54,892 nt of DNA, taken from positions 1-54,892 of the forward strand of contig JAYUVP010000117.1 in NCBI GenBank assembly GCA_043753995.1, given 5' to 3'. This document shows, piece by piece, positions 6,880-53,036 of the stretch; position 1 is the first letter of the stretch; the number at the start of each line of letters is the position of its first letter. The stretch comes from Fibrobacterota bacterium (lineage in GTDB: Bacteria > Fibrobacterota > Fibrobacteria > UBA11236). The position numbers and the translations under genes are program-made. The notes under the pieces were generated by a model. That model saw only the letters and a list, made by a program, of their open reading frames with translations, was not told the origin of the DNA and searched no databases.

Positions 6880-7257
6880 CTAAACGGAAAAAGCGGGAGG
6901 GCCGCGCGGCGATACGGCGCCGGGAAGACGGGAAGGTGCGGCAGTAGAGTGGGGGAAAGCAAAAAAAGCAAAATCATGAAAAGCGAAATCGGTTGAGTAA
7001 GCAGGTGTCTGAGATTGAACTTGCGCCGCGGCATGCCATTGGCAAGGAGCGCAATCCCCATGGATTTCGCTGGCTGGTAATGGGCCTTGCCAAGCGATTC
7101 GGTTTCCCGAAGTCGCTTTCACATGGCCATGAAGAGTGGGAAGGCTGGCCCACAAGGTGAGCAAGGCATAGGCCCCAAGCAGGAACAAGGCCATACCCCG
7201 TCGACGGCCGCTTTGGAGCGAGGCGATGCGGAGGCTTATTCTAGGGGTGTTTCTCAT
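6880..7257 (-). CDS. DUF2946-like leader (putative ribosome-arrest) protein
   Basis: Basic N-terminus, TM segment with AYA, HGH, HGDCAPCQWH, RGPP four residues before stop; directly upstream of lipoprotein + TBDT. Confidence 0.8.
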   Translation of the reverse strand: MRNTPRISLRIASLQSGRRRGMALFLLGAYALLTLWASLPTLHGHVKATSGNRIAWQGPLPASEIHGDCAPCQWHAAAQVQSQTPAYSTDFAFHDFAFFAFPHSTAAPSRLPGAVSPRGPPAFSV

Positions 7258-7329
7258 GGGGCGGATGAACAATATCAGGATCTACTTATCTCCTCTCTTC
7301 CTGGCCAATCGCATGGAGCAAGGCTTGTC

Positions 7330-7700
7330 CTAGTCGTAAGCGGGTGAATTCTTAAGTCTTGATCTCTCGGCGACTTCTGAAAATCGGAAGTTCGGTGAGA
7401 CGAAGCTCGAATCGTTGAGGGTCCCCAAGAAAGCCAAAAGGGCTTGCCGCTCCGCCTTCGTCAGTCCCAGACCCTTCGCCCAGGAAAATGGGCATTGGGC
7501 CAAGGCTCGAACCACCAAGATCGAGTCAATAGGCCCCTCACCGAAAGCTTTGCGAAAGGCGAGGCGATAGCCCGGCTGGGCTTTCAGTCGGATCGCGGCT
7601 TCACTCCAGGGCGGGGCCATTTCTACGGGATTCGTGACGGGACAAAAATCCTGACCTTCGAGGCTGAGCCTTCCCCTTCTTGCCACGCTCTAATCTGAGC
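7330..7700 (-). pseudogene. internally deleted di-haem cytochrome c peroxidase (MauG/MbnH-like) remnant
   Basis: GR.SLEGQ..PVTNPVEM..Y..AF..AFG..I..V.RALAQ is fused straight to the C-terminal GL...E.QALLAFLGTL.D..F; no CxxCH remains. Confidence 0.7.
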
Positions 7701-10214: not shown

Positions 10215-10754
10215 ATGCTGCGATTTGGCCTGCAATACTGGCGCCGCCGCCTTTTGCAGCCAGGACAATTAGTCTTGGCTGCCCTGGCTTATGCCCTATT
10301 CGCCATCGCGCCTCATGATTATTTCCTGAATCATGAGCATGCGGGGGGCGGTCTCACCCATGAGCATTCCGTCTCCTCCTTGCATCAGGCGAATTTAGAG
10401 AGGCAAGTGATGGCGACTTTGAACGGCGCCACTTCGGAGATGGAAGACCACTTGTCCTCGACGGGTGAAGGGGAAACCTCGGTTGCAGCCCACCAAGGTT
10501 CACTCGCGGCGAGCGAAAGTCCGGCACCCTCGATACCGCCATATGCATTGACTGGCGCAGCGGGCCTCAAGGTCCCTCAATCATTCGCTCACGGACATTT
10601 CTTTTCCGACGCCAATCTCGTCGCCCTGGTCTTTGTCTTGTCTTTGTTCTGGGTGCTGCTGGGCAAGGCCGCCATGCCGGCATGGATTTTTCTGGCGAGC
10701 CCCAGCCTTCGCCTTTTGCCCGCCGCCGCGCGTGGGCCGCCCCGCTTCGTCTAA
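10215..10754 (+). CDS. His-rich DUF2946-like leader (putative ribosome-arrest) protein
   Basis: TM segment with LAYAL; HEH...HEH and HGH clusters; second hydrophobic segment; RGPP three residues before stop; upstream of a TBDT. Confidence 0.75.
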   Translation: MLRFGLQYWRRRLLQPGQLVLAALAYALFAIAPHDYFLNHEHAGGGLTHEHSVSSLHQANLERQVMATLNGATSEMEDHLSSTGEGETSVAAHQGSLAASESPAPSIPPYALTGAAGLKVPQSFAHGHFFSDANLVALVFVLSLFWVLLGKAAMPAWIFLASPSLRLLPAAARGPPRFV

Positions 10755-46695: not shown

Positions 46696-47931
46696 TCACC
46701 AAGCCCACTTCGCCGACGCACCCAGGGTATAGCCCTCGGGATGAACGCCAGACTCTTGTGACCTTTGCCAAAAGCGGCTGAGAAAGCCGCTCAAACCCAA
46801 AACGCGATCCCCGATGGGATGGCTCCAGCCGAGTTCGCCCGTGACCGTTTCTTGAGTCAGTCCCGCCAAGCGATAGTCTCCGCTGCGATACCCTTCGACC
46901 TTTGTGTAATGATGTTGCCAGAATTCCGCGGCGTCTTGCGAGGCATGGCGATGGCGCAAGGTGAGCAAAAAGCCATCGACGAATTGCCAACGCAAGGCGG
47001 TTTCGGGAATCCAGGCATGAAAATTCCAACTGTCATAATATGCCCCTTCACGATGATGCAAAGCCAAACCGCTCCAAAGAGAAAAGGACCATTCCAGCAC
47101 CGCACTGTGACGCCAGCGAGTGTCGGGGAGATTTTCGGTGAATTGCGTAGTGATGACCGTCGATCGCCGATAAGGGCTTTCCAAAGTGCCGGCCTGCACG
47201 GCAAGTCCATAAGTCGCCGAGACGACGCTGCGCCGTCCCATCACCTGAGAAATACCGAAACCGGCAAGATACCTTTGCTGGTTGGCGGGCCAGCGATCTT
47301 GCTCTCCCGGGGGAGGGACATGGGGTTCAATGCGATCCTGGCCGAAACCCAAATGCCCGGAAAGCATAAGGTTGCGCTGCCGCAACTCCACCGCAGCGTC
47401 CGCGATGCCGGTCATGGAGAAGTAATCATCCTCATGGGAAATACTGACCCGACCGCCCAAGCGATGGGGCTTATCGCCATGCCCGATTTGCCGAGCCAAT
47501 CCAACGCTGCCTTCATAGCGATGCTGCACCAAACCGCCATCTACGCTGGAAGCCCGCTGCGAAGCCCCGCTCACCGCATCGCTCCCGTTGGCTAAATCGG
47601 ATGAAGTCATGTCTACTTCATCGGGGTCGTCAGATGCGCCCACCGCGCGCTTGGCGGCATGCACATGGCCACCGCCCGTAGATCCATCGGGGGAGGGCAT
47701 CATCTCAATGCGATCCCAAAGTATATCGGCGATGAAAAGCCAATTCGGGGCGAGGCCCTGTTCCAGACCGACATTCGAAGTCAGCACCTGCATGCCACCG
47801 TGATCGCGATAGTGAAAGAGATCGAAATACGAACTACCGCCCGCTATGGACAAGGCCCTAGCGGTTAGCACCACCACGGTGGCGCGTCGTCCTGAGGCAT
47901 GCAGTAAATGGACCCACGCGCCAAGCCGCAT
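46696..47931 (-). CDS. DUF3570 family outer-membrane protein
   Basis: DAVSGAS, S.E.DY.S, G.L..PYR, E.LPD.R.R, YYDSW..A, D.RLA; start ATG 47931 overlaps the upstream TAA (TAATG). Confidence 0.82.
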   Translation of the reverse strand: MRLGAWVHLLHASGRRATVVVLTARALSIAGGSSYFDLFHYRDHGGMQVLTSNVGLEQGLAPNWLFIADILWDRIEMMPSPDGSTGGGHVHAAKRAVGASDDPDEVDMTSSDLANGSDAVSGASQRASSVDGGLVQHRYEGSVGLARQIGHGDKPHRLGGRVSISHEDDYFSMTGIADAAVELRQRNLMLSGHLGFGQDRIEPHVPPPGEQDRWPANQQRYLAGFGISQVMGRRSVVSATYGLAVQAGTLESPYRRSTVITTQFTENLPDTRWRHSAVLEWSFSLWSGLALHHREGAYYDSWNFHAWIPETALRWQFVDGFLLTLRHRHASQDAAEFWQHHYTKVEGYRSGDYRLAGLTQETVTGELGWSHPIGDRVLGLSGFLSRFWQRSQESGVHPEGYTLGASAKWAW

Positions 47932-49340
47932 TATTTCACCGGACCCGCAGGATGCGACGGGCCTACTTCGCTGCCCCAAGTTGCCAAAGTAGATGGACCC
48001 GTAACTACCAGTATTGTTTTGACGACTTTCCCTGTACCCACTTCAATCACCGTCACGGTATTGTCGAGATTATCTCCTTCGATCAGCCACTTACCGTCGC
48101 CAGTCAAGGTTTCGGGATGATGACCGCGGCTCTTGCCCACGGTGAGAGACGGCAATTGGATGGGGTTTTTCGGATCGCTGATATCGAAGACATGGCGTTG
48201 GCTGGAATAGCCTGCCGTGTCGCTATTGCCGCCCAAGACATAAATGCGATTCACCGAAGCCATCACGGTCATATGATCAAGGCCAGTATTCTTATGGACC
48301 TTGGGCAAACTGTCCTTGCAAGCGGATCCGGTTAGCAATACCGGAATCTGGTTCACCACACTGTCCAAACCGCCGTCAATCACGACGATTTGTCCCACTT
48401 GGCAAACCGCGCCGGGATGGGTGGCACTGCCTTCGCGAGGACTATTCTGCACGCTATAGACATAGTTGGTGCCAGCCAAAGCCTTGGTATAACCTCCACC
48501 TTTGCCGTGGGTATTCAGCAATTTGGCCTTAGGTGCGGCGGCATCTTGATCGATGCTCAAGATTTTGCCAATGCCGGTAAGACTGTGATACCCGCGTCCC
48601 GAAACCGGTGCCGTGGCCGCACCATGCGGAGAAAGTGAAACGCCTCCCGTGCCGCAGGTTTTTTCTATCGACGATCCGTCAAAGCCCAAGTCCAGCGAAG
48701 AAATATTGGCGACCTCGACGATATTCGCCGCATCACTGAAGTCGAGCACTTTAATCACTTCGGCGCAATCGCCTATATCCGATATCGAGACGCGCGCCTT
48801 GGTTTTGCTGAAGGCCGCCTTGTGATGGCCTATGCCGAGTGGGGCTTCACCGACATATTGCAAATACTTGTCACTACCCGGTTGGATGTCGATGAATAAG
48901 GCTCCATTGGTGGGCTTGGTGCCGCTACCGTCAAGCAAGGAAACGAAATATTGTTTGCCATTCAGAGGCGTCGTCAAAAAACCATGGGTGGGCTTGAGAC
49001 CGCCATTTTTGGGGGTGATGCGACTTTTTTCCAGCATGTCCTTGCCGTTAAAAACAATCACCTGATGTTTGGTGCCGCTATTGACGATCAGGGTCCCGTC
49101 CTCCAAAGCCGACATATCGGTCAAGCCGCCCACATCGGGGATTTCGCCGGCTTTTTGCTCGCCCGTAGTCAAATCATAAGCAGCAATTTTCGATGCGCCG
49201 CCCACATAAAGGGTGAGATGGGTATGGCTGGAATGATAGTGTCCTTCGTCGTCGTGGGCGTCGTTCATGCAGCCATAAAAACCAAGCGCTAGGATTGCAG
49301 CCACACCACCCGGCAATAAATAAAAACGAGATAATTTCAT
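47931..49340 (-). CDS. His-rich YncE/AztD-like beta-propeller lipoprotein
   Basis: Lipobox FYGC followed by AHDDEGHYHSSHTH; blade repeats (PTHG, GHH, SPHG, DNTVTVI.V.TGKVV.TI.V..GP); AGAGG SD. Confidence 0.75.
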   Translation of the reverse strand: MKLSRFYLLPGGVAAILALGFYGCMNDAHDDEGHYHSSHTHLTLYVGGASKIAAYDLTTGEQKAGEIPDVGGLTDMSALEDGTLIVNSGTKHQVIVFNGKDMLEKSRITPKNGGLKPTHGFLTTPLNGKQYFVSLLDGSGTKPTNGALFIDIQPGSDKYLQYVGEAPLGIGHHKAAFSKTKARVSISDIGDCAEVIKVLDFSDAANIVEVANISSLDLGFDGSSIEKTCGTGGVSLSPHGAATAPVSGRGYHSLTGIGKILSIDQDAAAPKAKLLNTHGKGGGYTKALAGTNYVYSVQNSPREGSATHPGAVCQVGQIVVIDGGLDSVVNQIPVLLTGSACKDSLPKVHKNTGLDHMTVMASVNRIYVLGGNSDTAGYSSQRHVFDISDPKNPIQLPSLTVGKSRGHHPETLTGDGKWLIEGDNLDNTVTVIEVGTGKVVKTILVVTGPSTLATWGSEVGPSHPAGPVK

Positions 49341-49363: not shown

Positions 49364-49624
49364 TTAGTTCACGCATCCGCAGCCTCCACCGGGAGCACTG
49401 GCGGGAAGGTGTGAACCCGTCATGGTTTGAAAAACCTTGTCTTCATAGGATCGCAGCGATCTCGATCCCGCGAAAGGCGATTCCATGCAGGGCTGGGCAA
49501 GTCTCCCGCGCTCCGCAGGCTTTACCGTGGCGCAATGCATAAGCATGAAGCCGGCGGAAATCGGCAGAGCCAGGAATACGAATCGGGAAACGGCTTTCAC
49601 CGCACCCACCAGGGTAACGCGCAT
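49364..49624 (-). CDS. DUF4266 family small lipoprotein
   Basis: C.TVKP.ERG.LA..CM and terminal GGGCGC; GGAGG SD. Confidence 0.88.
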   Translation of the reverse strand: MRVTLVGAVKAVSRFVFLALPISAGFMLMHCATVKPAERGRLAQPCMESPFAGSRSLRSYEDKVFQTMTGSHLPASAPGGGCGCVN

Positions 49625-49747
49625 GGGACCTCCGCCACGGCCTAGGCCGGGGCAGACAGGGTTGAAAATGGGAAACGAATATTAAGGGCTCCGGAGCCCT
49701 CATGCCGTAGCAAAAACGGCAAATCGGCTTTGTAAAGCCGCGAGGAA

Positions 49748-50275
49748 TTAAGCCAAGAAAATGGGAACTTTGTCGGGCGCTTCGGGGCTAAAGCCCGCCC
49801 AACGCGACGAGGCGATTTCGTATTGCGCGGCCTGGCTTTCCCAAAGCATCGGGGCTTCGGTAAGACACAAGGCGTGCAGGGGCAGGCCGCCCATTTCCCA
49901 AGCAAAGTCTGCTTCGGAGCTACAGGCGCGATAGCAAGTCTCGCCCTTAAGTAAATCCGCCTTGGCTTCCGAATCTGCTTCGTGGTGACCGTGACTCTCC
50001 ACCACTTCCGGCGGACAATGGCAATTCGGCGGACAAGCCATTTCGGTATGATGCATGCAATGCCGCACCTGCTCGGCAGGCATTTCAATACGCGAGGCGG
50101 CTAAAGCTGTCTCTTTATCACGATGCGCATCGCGCCAGCTTTGAACCAAGGGTAAAACAGCTTGAAATACCAGCCAGGCATAGGCCACAAGCGCTACCGC
50201 ACTCAGGGTGCCGGAGCGTTGCCGCTGTAGGTAAAATCCACCCGAGGGGGAGTTCAAGACCAAAGGCCATCTCAT
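49748..50275 (-). CDS. Cys/His-rich membrane-anchored leader protein ending PDKVP
   Basis: TM with VAYAW; HCMHH, CPPNCHC, HGHH, CYRAC; ends PEAPDKVPIFLA; first gene before DUF4266. Confidence 0.72.
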   Translation of the reverse strand: MRWPLVLNSPSGGFYLQRQRSGTLSAVALVAYAWLVFQAVLPLVQSWRDAHRDKETALAASRIEMPAEQVRHCMHHTEMACPPNCHCPPEVVESHGHHEADSEAKADLLKGETCYRACSSEADFAWEMGGLPLHALCLTEAPMLWESQAAQYEIASSRWAGFSPEAPDKVPIFLA

Positions 50276-50402: not shown

Positions 50403-52298
50403 ATGTCGGCCAAGTTTCCCAAATCCAATTCCCGCTTATCCTTGGCCCTTAGCCTCGTTGCTCTGGCAGGCCTCAGCGCCTGCATGCGCGACACCATCAC
50501 CGGACCCACCGGGCCACGCTATTTCACCCGCGACACCCAGGGCTTGCCCGAAGCGCATGCCATGAAAATCCGCGAGGTAGGGTCAGGCGATTCCCTGAGG
50601 CTAGAAGCCGGACCCGCGAAGAAAAACATCAAGGGCATTGAAACTCGACTCCTGGTTTATGGCGGCAGCTTTCCCGGTCCCATCTTGCGGGTCAAGCAGG
50701 GCAGCCGCATCACTCTCAATCTTGTCAATCATACCGGAGCGCCCACCACCTTGCATCCCCATGGATTACGTCTCGATTATCGATTCGACGGCGTGCCCAA
50801 TTACACGCAAGCGCCTATCGCTCCCGGCGATTCCTTTGTTTATCAACTCGACTTTCCCGATCCGGGACTCTTTTGGTATCACCCGCATGTGCGTGGCGAT
50901 TATCAAGGCGATCTCGGACTCTATGGTGCCATCTGGGTCATTCCCAAGGACTCGGCTTATTGGGGCGGGTCGGTCGATCAGGAGCAAATCCTCATCCTCG
51001 ACGACATGCTGCTCGACAGCGGCGGCATCGCTCCTTATCCAACGGAGGGGTCCGATCATTCCCTCATGGGTCGCTTCGGCAATACCTTGCTTATCAACGG
51101 TGAAACCGACTTTCGCCTGCAGGGAAAACATTTCGAACGCGTCCGCTTTTTCATACTCAATGCCGCCAATGTGCGGGCTTTCAATTTCAGTTTAAGCAGT
51201 GCCTTGATGCGAGTCATCGGATCGGATTGCGGACGTGCCCATAGCATCAGCTTAGCTAACTCCATACTCATCACTCCCGCCGAGCGCAGTGTCGTCGAAG
51301 TCCTTTTTCTTTCTCGCGACGAATATCTCATCGAGCATCAGAGCCCGGTGAAATACCTGACCACCGGCCCCTATTATGCACCCTATGGATCGGCCACTGC
51401 CCCCTTTCCCGAAAATTATCCCGTCATGGGCCGCATTCTCATCGATGCCGATTCCGCCAAATCAGGTCATAACCGTGATTTTTATGACTATCAAAATTTC
51501 TCGAATTTCCTCCACGACTATCCCGTCACGAATTATCAGCAAATCGATTCCGCCATTCAGCAAAATCCGGACTTCACCATGGAATTATCCATTGCCATGG
51601 ACCACAGCACCTTGCCCATGTCCATGATGCCGACGCCCGTTCAGGACACCGTCGCCCCAACCCCATTCCCTCAATCGCCCACCGCTTTCCATGATGCTCA
51701 AGTTCCAGGGGGTAACCCCAAGGTGGCCCCCTATTTTATGCCCTATGTCCCACGTGATTCCCTGGGCCGCCCCATAGCCGCGGGATCCATAGGCGAAGTG
51801 ACGCCCTTGGGCATTCGCCGCGTCGCGGCGCAGGCCAAGACCCATCATCATGGCAGTGCGCCCGCTCTCGCCAAGGCCGCGCATAATGATCCTTTCGGAC
51901 AAGGCATCGATTGGTATGACGATATGCCCGAAATGAATGCCGCCAGTAATACCGGCAATGTCCGCTGGATCATGCGCGACTTTCAAACCGGCCTCGAAAA
52001 CATGTCGGTGCGGTGGCGATTGCGCCAGGGCCGATATTATCACGTACGCATTTGGAATATCGCCGATCATATGCACCCCATGGCTCACTTCATTCACTTC
52101 CACGGACAACGCTCCCTATTGCTCGGAACCAATGGCGTGCCCGAAGCCTCCCTGGCTTGGAAAGACACCTTTCTCGTCGGCATGGGCAAGGTCGTGGATA
52201 TTTTAATAGAAGCCAGCAATCCCGGTGATTGGATGGCCCATTGCCACATCGCCGAGCATGCCGAAGCCAGCATGATGACTTATTTCCGGGTGGACTGA
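50403..52298 (+). CDS. multicopper oxidase, lipoprotein
   Basis: All four Cu motifs (HPHG, WYHPH, HFIHFHG, HCHIAEHAEASM); lipobox LSAC. Confidence 0.95.
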   Translation: MSAKFPKSNSRLSLALSLVALAGLSACMRDTITGPTGPRYFTRDTQGLPEAHAMKIREVGSGDSLRLEAGPAKKNIKGIETRLLVYGGSFPGPILRVKQGSRITLNLVNHTGAPTTLHPHGLRLDYRFDGVPNYTQAPIAPGDSFVYQLDFPDPGLFWYHPHVRGDYQGDLGLYGAIWVIPKDSAYWGGSVDQEQILILDDMLLDSGGIAPYPTEGSDHSLMGRFGNTLLINGETDFRLQGKHFERVRFFILNAANVRAFNFSLSSALMRVIGSDCGRAHSISLANSILITPAERSVVEVLFLSRDEYLIEHQSPVKYLTTGPYYAPYGSATAPFPENYPVMGRILIDADSAKSGHNRDFYDYQNFSNFLHDYPVTNYQQIDSAIQQNPDFTMELSIAMDHSTLPMSMMPTPVQDTVAPTPFPQSPTAFHDAQVPGGNPKVAPYFMPYVPRDSLGRPIAAGSIGEVTPLGIRRVAAQAKTHHHGSAPALAKAAHNDPFGQGIDWYDDMPEMNAASNTGNVRWIMRDFQTGLENMSVRWRLRQGRYYHVRIWNIADHMHPMAHFIHFHGQRSLLLGTNGVPEASLAWKDTFLVGMGKVVDILIEASNPGDWMAHCHIAEHAEASMMTYFRVD

Positions 52299-52400: not shown

Positions 52401-53036
52401 ATGGGACTTTTTTCGCGTTACACGACTCTTCGTTTCATCCTCGGCATGGGCCTGCTCTTTGTAATCAGCACGCCAATCCAAGCTCAAGCCCTTTCCCATT
52501 TTCTCAAAAACCCACCGGAAGGCGCGCCCAGCCGCTTTGCCACCAATGCCCTCGTCACCGGCCTCAGCTATCATCCTGACGGCGGAGAAAACGAAGGCTA
52601 TCCCCGCCAACTGGACGATGAAGCCTATTGGGTGCTTTTGCTCGGAGGCCAACTCGATGGCGATATGTATTTGCATCGCTACCTTCTCTTGCGCGCCTCA
52701 CTCTCGGTCTATCGCGATTGCGCCGATGTCTGGAGCGGCTTCTATCATCTCGGCCCGCGCCTAAATTTGCCCATAGGCCCCCGCTTCACCTTTCGCATCG
52801 GCATCGGACCCACCTTACTCTGGCGACAAAACTGGCTCGGCGTGGTGAAGGGCTATACCAAGGACAGCTTTTACGGCAAAGCCACGAATGGCGACTATCA
52901 AACCAAATTCATTTGGTATGGCGGCGACCTCGATTTCGAATGGAAGCTGACTCCAAAGCTAAGCCTCATCTATGCCAATATTCCCGGATGGCCCGAAGTC
53001 ATTACCAGCAGTATCGGCGTGCGCTTCACTCATTAA
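52401..53036 (+). CDS. hypothetical exported or outer-membrane beta-strand protein
   Basis: Signal peptide (AQA); amphipathic strands; terminal IGVRF; AAGGA SD. Confidence 0.75.
   Translation: MGLFSRYTTLRFILGMGLLFVISTPIQAQALSHFLKNPPEGAPSRFATNALVTGLSYHPDGGENEGYPRQLDDEAYWVLLLGGQLDGDMYLHRYLLLRASLSVYRDCADVWSGFYHLGPRLNLPIGPRFTFRIGIGPTLLWRQNWLGVVKGYTKDSFYGKATNGDYQTKFIWYGGDLDFEWKLTPKLSLIYANIPGWPEVITSSIGVRFTH

Follow-up and report, generated by a model that had tools for sequence, protein, structure and literature searches.

Is the unannotated, Cys-rich protein encoded at the head of a small envelope operon made for its own sake, or is it a leader that is read while the ribosome is still making it, and, if so, through which residues? 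The question arises from an ORF in a 54,892-nucleotide stretch of DNA from a Fibrobacterota bacterium (contig JAYUVP010000117.1), called the window here. A sequence-only reading had described this ORF as a DUF2946-like leader, similar to two RGPP leaders of the same window and ending in a possible new arrest motif, PDKVP. The ORF and its C terminus (PEAPDKVPIFLA, then the stop codon) were confirmed in the translation, as were the ligand motifs named in that reading, HCMHH (residues 72 to 76), CPPNCHC (81 to 87), HGHH, and CYRAC (114 to 118). Coordinates are collected in Table 1.

Table 1. Features of the leader locus and the RGPP leaders of the window
Feature	Position	Strand	Basis or remark
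Leader ORF	49748..50275	(-)	175 aa; homologues and dN/dS; start codon uncertain, clear Shine-Dalgarno not seen
Hydrophobic signal/anchor segment, residues 24-44, preceded by basic residues	50144..50206	(-)	Hydropathy and model
Cys/His cluster C73-x-H-H-x(4-5)-C81-P-x-x-C85-x-C87-P	50012..50059	(-)	Putative metal or thiol sensor
CYRAC, with C118 the conserved "ruler" Cys	49922..49936	(-)	50 residues ahead of K169
K-V-P-I motif	49760..49771	(-)	Candidate ribosome pause site; Lys is AAA, Pro is CCC
Intergenic region, 123 nt	49625..49747	(-)	Several predicted local hairpins
Predicted local hairpin over the DUF4266 gene's ribosome-binding site (GGAGG)	49628..49662	(-)	
DUF4266 small secreted CxC protein	49364..49624	(-)	Next after the leader; PF14086, E 1.9e-7
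His-containing lipoprotein	47931..49340	(-)	Sub-threshold Kelch matches
DUF3570 protein (flavinylation-substrate family)	46696..47931	(-)	PF12094, E 4.6e-26
Divergent multicopper oxidase	50403..52298	(+)	Same arrangement at L009; copper context; regulation by the leader not implied
RGPP leaders of the window	6880-7272 and 10215-10754		

The N terminus of the leader is hydrophobic (Kyte-Doolittle mean of 2.14 in the best 19-residue window), and by the same kind of measure an N-terminal membrane segment was found in 20/20 family members (hydropathy 1.4 to 2.3). In a structure predicted from a 17-sequence alignment, the N-terminal helix (residues 22 to 52) alone was confident; the model as a whole had a mean pLDDT of 60 and a pTM of 0.28, and the linker was apparently unfolded. 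Across leader pairs, dN/dS was 0.21 to 0.43 in 6/8, with the remaining 2/8 saturated at synonymous sites. Judged by these substitution rates, purifying selection shows that the leader family is a real protein. An overlapping frame at 49642 to 50088 was taken as a shadow ORF.

No Pfam or NCBIfam match was obtained for the leader protein, with NCBIfam searched for 17 members and Pfam also tried on relatives, and solved structures gave no match to the family (best E 0.55). PF11162, the DUF2946 family, was not matched at E≤1 by the leader or by 12 members, and the whole genome yielded one unrelated sub-threshold match. The description as DUF2946-like therefore held for the layout and not for the family. 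Feature-based cluster neighbors of the leader were unnamed, “DUF2946 domain-containing,” and CzcI clusters at 0.93 to 0.94, sharing just 112 to 135 features; weaker neighbors (DUF6769, DUF8199, and DUF6660) lay below 0.9, and all of these are treated as leads only.

Single-protein searches first gave six relatives with 34 to 66% identity; a seventh fell into a 90% cluster with one of these six and was left out of the counts. The family was assembled by single-protein, profile (296 genomes from the phylum and 39 from the order), metagenome, and DNA-pattern searches and comprises 25 distinct full-length members of 143 to 186 aa plus one short ORF, with DNA available for 19 loci. None of the positive conclusions depends on the unpublished genome G254. 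Full-length leaders occurred in 14/39 genomes of the order. The remaining 257 genomes from the phylum, searched with narrower profiles than the widest, yielded no leader among the 12 candidates scored in each, and viral contigs and plasmids held none of this family. Reach outside Fibrobacterota was judged by single-protein searches and peptide-pattern scans, and in these searches the family was found only in a single Fibrobacterota order, with limited reach elsewhere. Several kinds of candidate were read and set aside as not being leaders: all six pattern matches outside the order, 10 of 13 new DNA-pattern matches, and weak genome matches (L007, L008, L035-L040, L149, L152-L154, and L156).

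The members are strongly diverged. Among the 20 aligned first, median identity was 22%, and the columns common to all were five Cys plus the K, P, and I of the terminal motif, nothing else. C73, C81, C85, and C87 were kept in 20/20 aligned members, and C73, C81, and C85 in 22/22. Within the exported part, C81-x3-C85 is an invariant CxxxC, and C114-x3-C118 recurs in four members besides the present leader. HGHH, placed in the ligand region by the sequence-only reading, was not conserved. Three ligand heads were distinguished, namely C-x-H-H..C-P-x-x-C-x-C-P, as in the present leader, one ending in C-C-C-F, and one starting with C-C-C or C-x-C and ending in C-C; all three lead into the same tail at the same spacing. 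At two places (L021 with L124, G253 C58; L023 with L165, G252 C97), two K[VI]PI leaders that differ in ligand type stand at the heads of divergent operons, back to back and in each case separated by one gene.

The conserved tail is K-[VI]-P-I. Its K, P, and I were invariant in 25/25 full-length members, and the variable position was V in 17 and I in 8. The residue before the Lys was D in 7/25 and the one before that was P in 16/25, so that PDKVP must be redrawn to exclude its first two residues. Some members were found with models containing the motif, which makes their conservation circular; in four (P0003, P0006, G247, and G252), however, the search match ended before the motif, and it was present nonetheless. 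A fifth noncircular case is the short ORF of genome G264, located by gene order alone, which ends in KIPIA. This ORF (L072:2949-3119, minus strand; 56 codons from stop to stop, 42 aa from a GTG) precedes an orthologous DUF4266 operon, has neither signal nor Cys cluster, carries one Cys 34 residues ahead of the Lys, and is either a minimal leader or a remnant. No homologue without K-[VI]-P-I was found, the weak matches read being shadow frames. R[AG]PP was absent from the last 20 residues of all 25 members, and PP occurred in the last 15 residues of five, the present leader not among them. K[VI]PI fell within the last 10 residues of 0/2,932 predicted long genes of the same genome.

Whether these four residues could arrest a ribosome unaided was considered from their use elsewhere. 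In the proteome of this one genome, K[VI]PI was observed 14 times against 16.5 to 17 expected, small counts on our own gene calls that indicate no depletion, whereas in the same count RAPP (4 versus 9 to 17 expected), RGPP (3 versus 5 to 14), and RAGP (3 versus 14 to 28) were depleted. Since K[VI]PI is not avoided, strong context-free arrest by the tetrapeptide alone is unlikely. No further position within tunnel length was invariant among the 20 aligned members, so any extra context needed for arrest is not visible in the alignment. The possibility that ribosomes shift frame by +1 or -1 at the CCC codon, in a programmed manner, and read on into the gap or next gene was rejected, as the 19 loci share no frame or stop position.

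The leader opens a same-strand unit: 123 nt further on comes the DUF4266 gene, followed by the lipoprotein and DUF3570 genes; the unit is divergent from the multicopper oxidase. The lipoprotein, for which a single-sequence model was uninformative (pLDDT 32), is presumably a beta-propeller, with sub-threshold Kelch matches. The DUF3570 protein keeps one SGAS flavinylation-type site and has a His-containing insertion, and the unit is without an ApbE or thioredoxin gene. According to PMC8238504, DUF4266 and DUF3570 are parts of a thiol/flavin redox system outside the cytoplasm; thiol state is therefore an alternative input to metal, and the downstream operon looks more like such an extracytoplasmic redox system than a copper importer. 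In this it departs from the two RGPP leaders, whose downstream operons are of the TonB uptake type; the presence of these two leaders in the window was confirmed. From the Cys-rich ligand set and the operon context, copper is our best guess for the ligand.

Around the unit, at both loci where the multicopper oxidase is divergent from a leader, that gene is followed by one for a probably exported protein without a family (52401 to 53036 in the window and L009:1287-2312). A short cation-efflux gene (PF01545, 46042 to 46671), convergent with the operon end, is a further metal-related neighbor. An integrase-like gene with tyrosine recombinase motifs, presumably of the integron type, lies at the contig end (53056 to 54435). 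The genome has four DUF4266 genes (G000 C117, C317, C337, and C349), two others of which were read and sit mid-operon; among the DUF4266 surroundings read, a leader was seen just with the divergent lipoprotein-linked type.

A same-strand gene followed the leader by 48 to 231 nt at 19/19 loci with DNA. Six full-length leaders and the short ORF precede a DUF4266-lipoprotein unit. The other next genes were five without a family (presumably outer-membrane barrel-like with an N-terminal Cys pair), five His-containing lipoproteins with weak DUF6130/DUF4399 or Ig-like matches, one TonB receptor, and one YtkA lipoprotein; as families, they are mutually unrelated envelope proteins. Eight genomes with the lipoprotein had a full leader in five cases, the short ORF in one, none in one, and a contig edge in one. 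In one genus, beside the same divergent gene, a leader was present in three genomes (L074, L075, and L077) and absent from four (L095, L097, L099, and L104), and at a sister-genus locus the barrel gene stood without a leader in four genomes. In G274 the leader is kept and the downstream barrel-like gene is from another family. In the upstream regions of 25 loci and of 30 mid-operon DUF4266 loci, no case was found in which orthologous loci had exchanged an RxPP end for a K[VI]PI end or the reverse.

A fixed feature of these proteins is a distance. From the ruler Cys to the motif Lys there were 48 to 51 residues in 25/25 members. Among the 20 aligned members this distance had a standard deviation of 0.78 over a linker of 15% identity, whereas the distance from the Cys cluster to the Lys ranged from 73 to 93 residues (standard deviation 5.3). 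In 18/25 members a single Cys lies 40 to 62 residues ahead of the Lys, so the ruler Cys is not a matter of choice. Three leaders found by motif DNA alone, with a different head, had spacings of 50, 49, and 51, and two more found later had 51 each. A divergent linker of constant length between a Cys and the terminal motif would suit a nascent-chain sensor and would be unneeded by a finished chaperone; the fixed ruler is, in our inference, the strongest argument for a co-translational role.

The same evidence bears on the reading in which the leader is a stable metallochaperone, periplasmic or anchored in the membrane, that serves the operon products and in which K-[VI]-P-I forms a strand for structure or partner binding. 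Such a protein could be expected to have the rich Cys/His set, export signal, and length observed and to lie among neighbors with metal-type motifs, as it does. It accords poorly, however, with the lack of a confident fold past the helix, with three heads sharing one tail and one spacing, with downstream partners unrelated to each other, and with the position of the leader, first in its unit ahead of a long C-rich gap, at 19/19 loci. We consider this reading very unlikely.

Unlike its distance from the Cys, the distance of the motif from the stop codon varies. The number of residues after the motif Ile was 1 in 12 members, 2 in one, 3 in six, 4 in five, and 7 in one; of the two expectations raised for homologues, conservation of the motif was thus borne out and a fixed distance to the stop was not. 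At the present locus a C-rich stretch covers the leader end together with the 15 nt directly past the stop. Over 14 loci, the C-over-G skew in the 48 nt around the leader stop was 0.37 compared with -0.045 at ordinary gene ends (0/20,000 resamples), and in the 15 noncoding nt after the stop it was 0.41 compared with 0.006; Pro codons contribute to the signal of the coding part. By composition, the leader ends are like Rho-loading sites, as in the cruR bubble. The genome encodes Rho and EF-P, with two Rho-like proteins carrying long N-terminal extensions (L175 and L176; G000 C274 and C227). Neither a sigma-70-type promoter at the leader locus nor an operator common to this locus and L009 was found.

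These two observations weigh on the possibility that a released, exported peptide carries K-[VI]-P-I as a hydrophobic protease or PDZ-type tag and is degraded or signals in trans. C-terminal recognition normally requires a fixed register, and here the motif ends 1 to 7 residues from the C terminus. The tails are short and nonpolar, as a tag would be, and in the accessible reports CruR was proposed to be degraded via its nonpolar C terminus and CutF was rapidly proteolyzed. A tag would nonetheless leave unexplained both the fixed distance to the upstream Cys and the C-rich 15 nt past the stop, and we regard this explanation as clearly unlikely.

The codons of the motif are themselves biased. 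Lys was AAA at 13/14 loci (6.4 expected) and Pro was CCC at 13/14 (6.1 expected), with p about 1e-4 each, although synonymous sites are near saturation. The leader end was predicted to form at least 8 pairs with the next start region at 9/19 loci, compared with 0/19 for an upstream control window. Own partners paired better than swapped ones with p about 1e-4 (0.03 in a narrower window), values that are overstated because the loci are kin and inflated by base composition, since 3/7 control windows gave p of 0.01 to 0.02. At 10/19 loci, the present one included, no such pairing was predicted, and at the present locus a modeled ribosome on the motif left the ribosome-binding site closed (0.3 kcal/mol; 0.1 expected pairs).

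The motif might then be constrained mainly as RNA, its codons being an anti-ribosome-binding-site or Rho-loading element switched by ordinary translation or termination, with no peptide-specific arrest. The codon bias, the pairing where it occurs, and the absence of proteome depletion all point in that direction. Against this, third codon positions vary while first and second positions are fixed except for the V/I difference, the Ile codon is never AUG, the motif is never out of the leader frame and lies a set number of residues from a Cys, and the pairing is missing at more than half of the loci. We consider an explanation mainly by RNA constraint unlikely.

We consider it probable, on comparative grounds, that the leader exerts cis-acting, pause-dependent control of the downstream envelope genes, as a CruR/CutF-like sensor with a new conditional pause motif. 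The leader product would enter the Sec translocon while attached to the ribosome. With the ribosome at the motif, the register that we infer, the conserved Cys 50 residues upstream would be just out of the exit tunnel, where it may combine with the Cys/His cluster to bind a metal, copper being the likeliest, or to form a disulfide. Folding of the head would set the duration of the presumed pause, and the paused ribosome would keep the downstream envelope genes on. At the leader end it would cover the C-rich putative Rho-loading stretch, and at about half of the loci it would melt the helix that joins this end to the next ribosome-binding site; at the present locus the Rho route fits better than helix melting.

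A bolder version, which we put forward tentatively and rate somewhat below an even chance, is that K-[VI]-P-I acts in the nascent peptide as an arrest motif of a new kind, with neither Arg nor di-proline. It would be harmless in ordinary proteins and would stall only where the 50-residue ruler couples it to the folding, driven by metal or thiol, of an exported Cys/His head, with three heads grafted on the same ruler and tail. Its codons would also be selected as RNA, either as a Rho site or as an anti-start arm, so that 12 nt would bear both stall and switch. If K-[VI]-P-I does arrest, it would represent new ribosome-stalling chemistry and a sensor-ruler-stall design that arose with a second motif. 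It would also offer a clean test of ligand-driven folding at the tunnel exit as the gate of a stall, the spacing being fixed to about 1.5 residues either way.

The closest functional parallel is CruR (Bp2923) of Bordetella pertussis, a member of Pfam DUF2946/PF11162. In the accessible text of PMC9426467, its 45-residue spacing from CxxC to RAPP is functionally required, with regulation lost when five residues are added, and that of PMC12992588 reports translation arrest; the CruR type is further marked by Rho-dependent termination under the control of copper. Like CruR, the K-[VI]-P-I leader heads an envelope operon and has an export signal, a Cys sensor at a fixed distance from a motif near the stop, a long intergenic region, a C-over-G stretch at the leader end, and a poorly structured product. 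The K-[VI]-P-I leader differs in its motif, in having a four-Cys/His cluster plus a lone Cys instead of CxxC, in a spacing of 48 to 51, in its greater length, and in its downstream genes, which are mostly not TonB receptors. Genes with a possible copper link at K-[VI]-P-I loci were the divergent multicopper oxidase at two, the TonB receptor at one, YtkA at one, and the weak DUF6130/DUF4399 matches; several loci had family-less genes. RAPP-like translation-impeding motifs, as far as PMC12992588 could be consulted, are avoided in the proteome, and K[VI]PI, in the one genome counted, is not.

The RGPP leaders of the window likewise lack Pfam (PF11162 included) and NCBIfam matches. The one at 6880 to 7272 has exactly the CruR spacing (45), and just upstream of it a fragment at 7330 to 7686, possibly a broken gene, has a partial di-haem cytochrome c peroxidase match; the one at 10215 to 10754 is without CxxC and has a second hydrophobic stretch ahead of RGPP. 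The spacing from CxxC to the motif was 43 to 45 in 4/4 local RxPP leaders with CxxC. Kinship of the present leader with that at 6880 to 7272 was rejected, profile comparison giving a probability of 4% on the hydrophobic stretch alone. The presence of both types in one genome makes a direct side-by-side comparison possible.

CutF of Rhodobacter capsulatus, judged from the accessible portions of PMC9973294 and bioRxiv 2025.02.05.636593, is similarly a Sec-exported, Cys-rich leader with CxxxC and a multicopper oxidase nearby, and the pairing of leader ends with the next ribosome-binding site predicted at 9/19 K-[VI]-P-I loci, the present one not among them, would be a further likeness. The present leader differs in having no polyproline, in its length of 175 aa, and in that its oxidase is divergent and not downstream. 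CutF-like proteins are defined in the same part of PMC9973294 by fewer than 150 aa, PP in the last 15 residues, and a stem-loop that hides the next ribosome-binding site until a stalled ribosome opens it, and the first two of these filters would exclude the present leader.

Precedent for new arresting motifs comes from peptides that monitor Sec/YidC, for which the accessible parts of PMC10987492 describe the non-RAPP motifs uC_KYxIW, uA_LPPP, NSP-stop, NAP-stop, and DGMK-stop; LudP (bioRxiv 2026.10.26.761930) is a further example. They share with K-[VI]-P-I leaders a short conserved C-terminal motif on a divergent exported leader. K-[VI]-P-I leaders, in contrast, are not upstream of sec/yidC genes and carry a Cys/His sensor, and their distance to the stop varies, whereas the stop-dependent motifs (NSP-stop, NAP-stop, and DGMK-stop) keep a fixed register directly ahead of the stop. 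KIPI does occur in some MifM-type uORFs in the part of the PMC10987492 supplement consulted, 11 residues ahead of the DED site and thus in a different register. In yeast, according to the accessible text of bioRxiv 2022.09.27.509727, ribosomes pause conditionally at Ile-Pro and especially at KIP; this redox pausing at XIP/KIP is eukaryotic, ubiquitin-dependent, and genome-wide, an analogy and not a relative.

In the freely readable literature, including that on CruR, CutF, and arrest-peptide surveys and part of their supplements, no description of the motif was found; the sequence-only reading likewise knew of no characterized DKVP-type arrest peptides. The characterized metal-sensing stalling leaders in the same readable literature use RAPP/RGPP or polyproline, and to genome surveys filtered on these the K-[VI]-P-I family is therefore invisible. 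What is new is an unannotated family of sensor-type leaders that share a new, conserved motif at the C terminus and a strict ruler from the Cys to that motif. By analogy, the K-[VI]-P-I leader appears to be CruR/CutF-like in its working while falling outside the sequence definitions of both.
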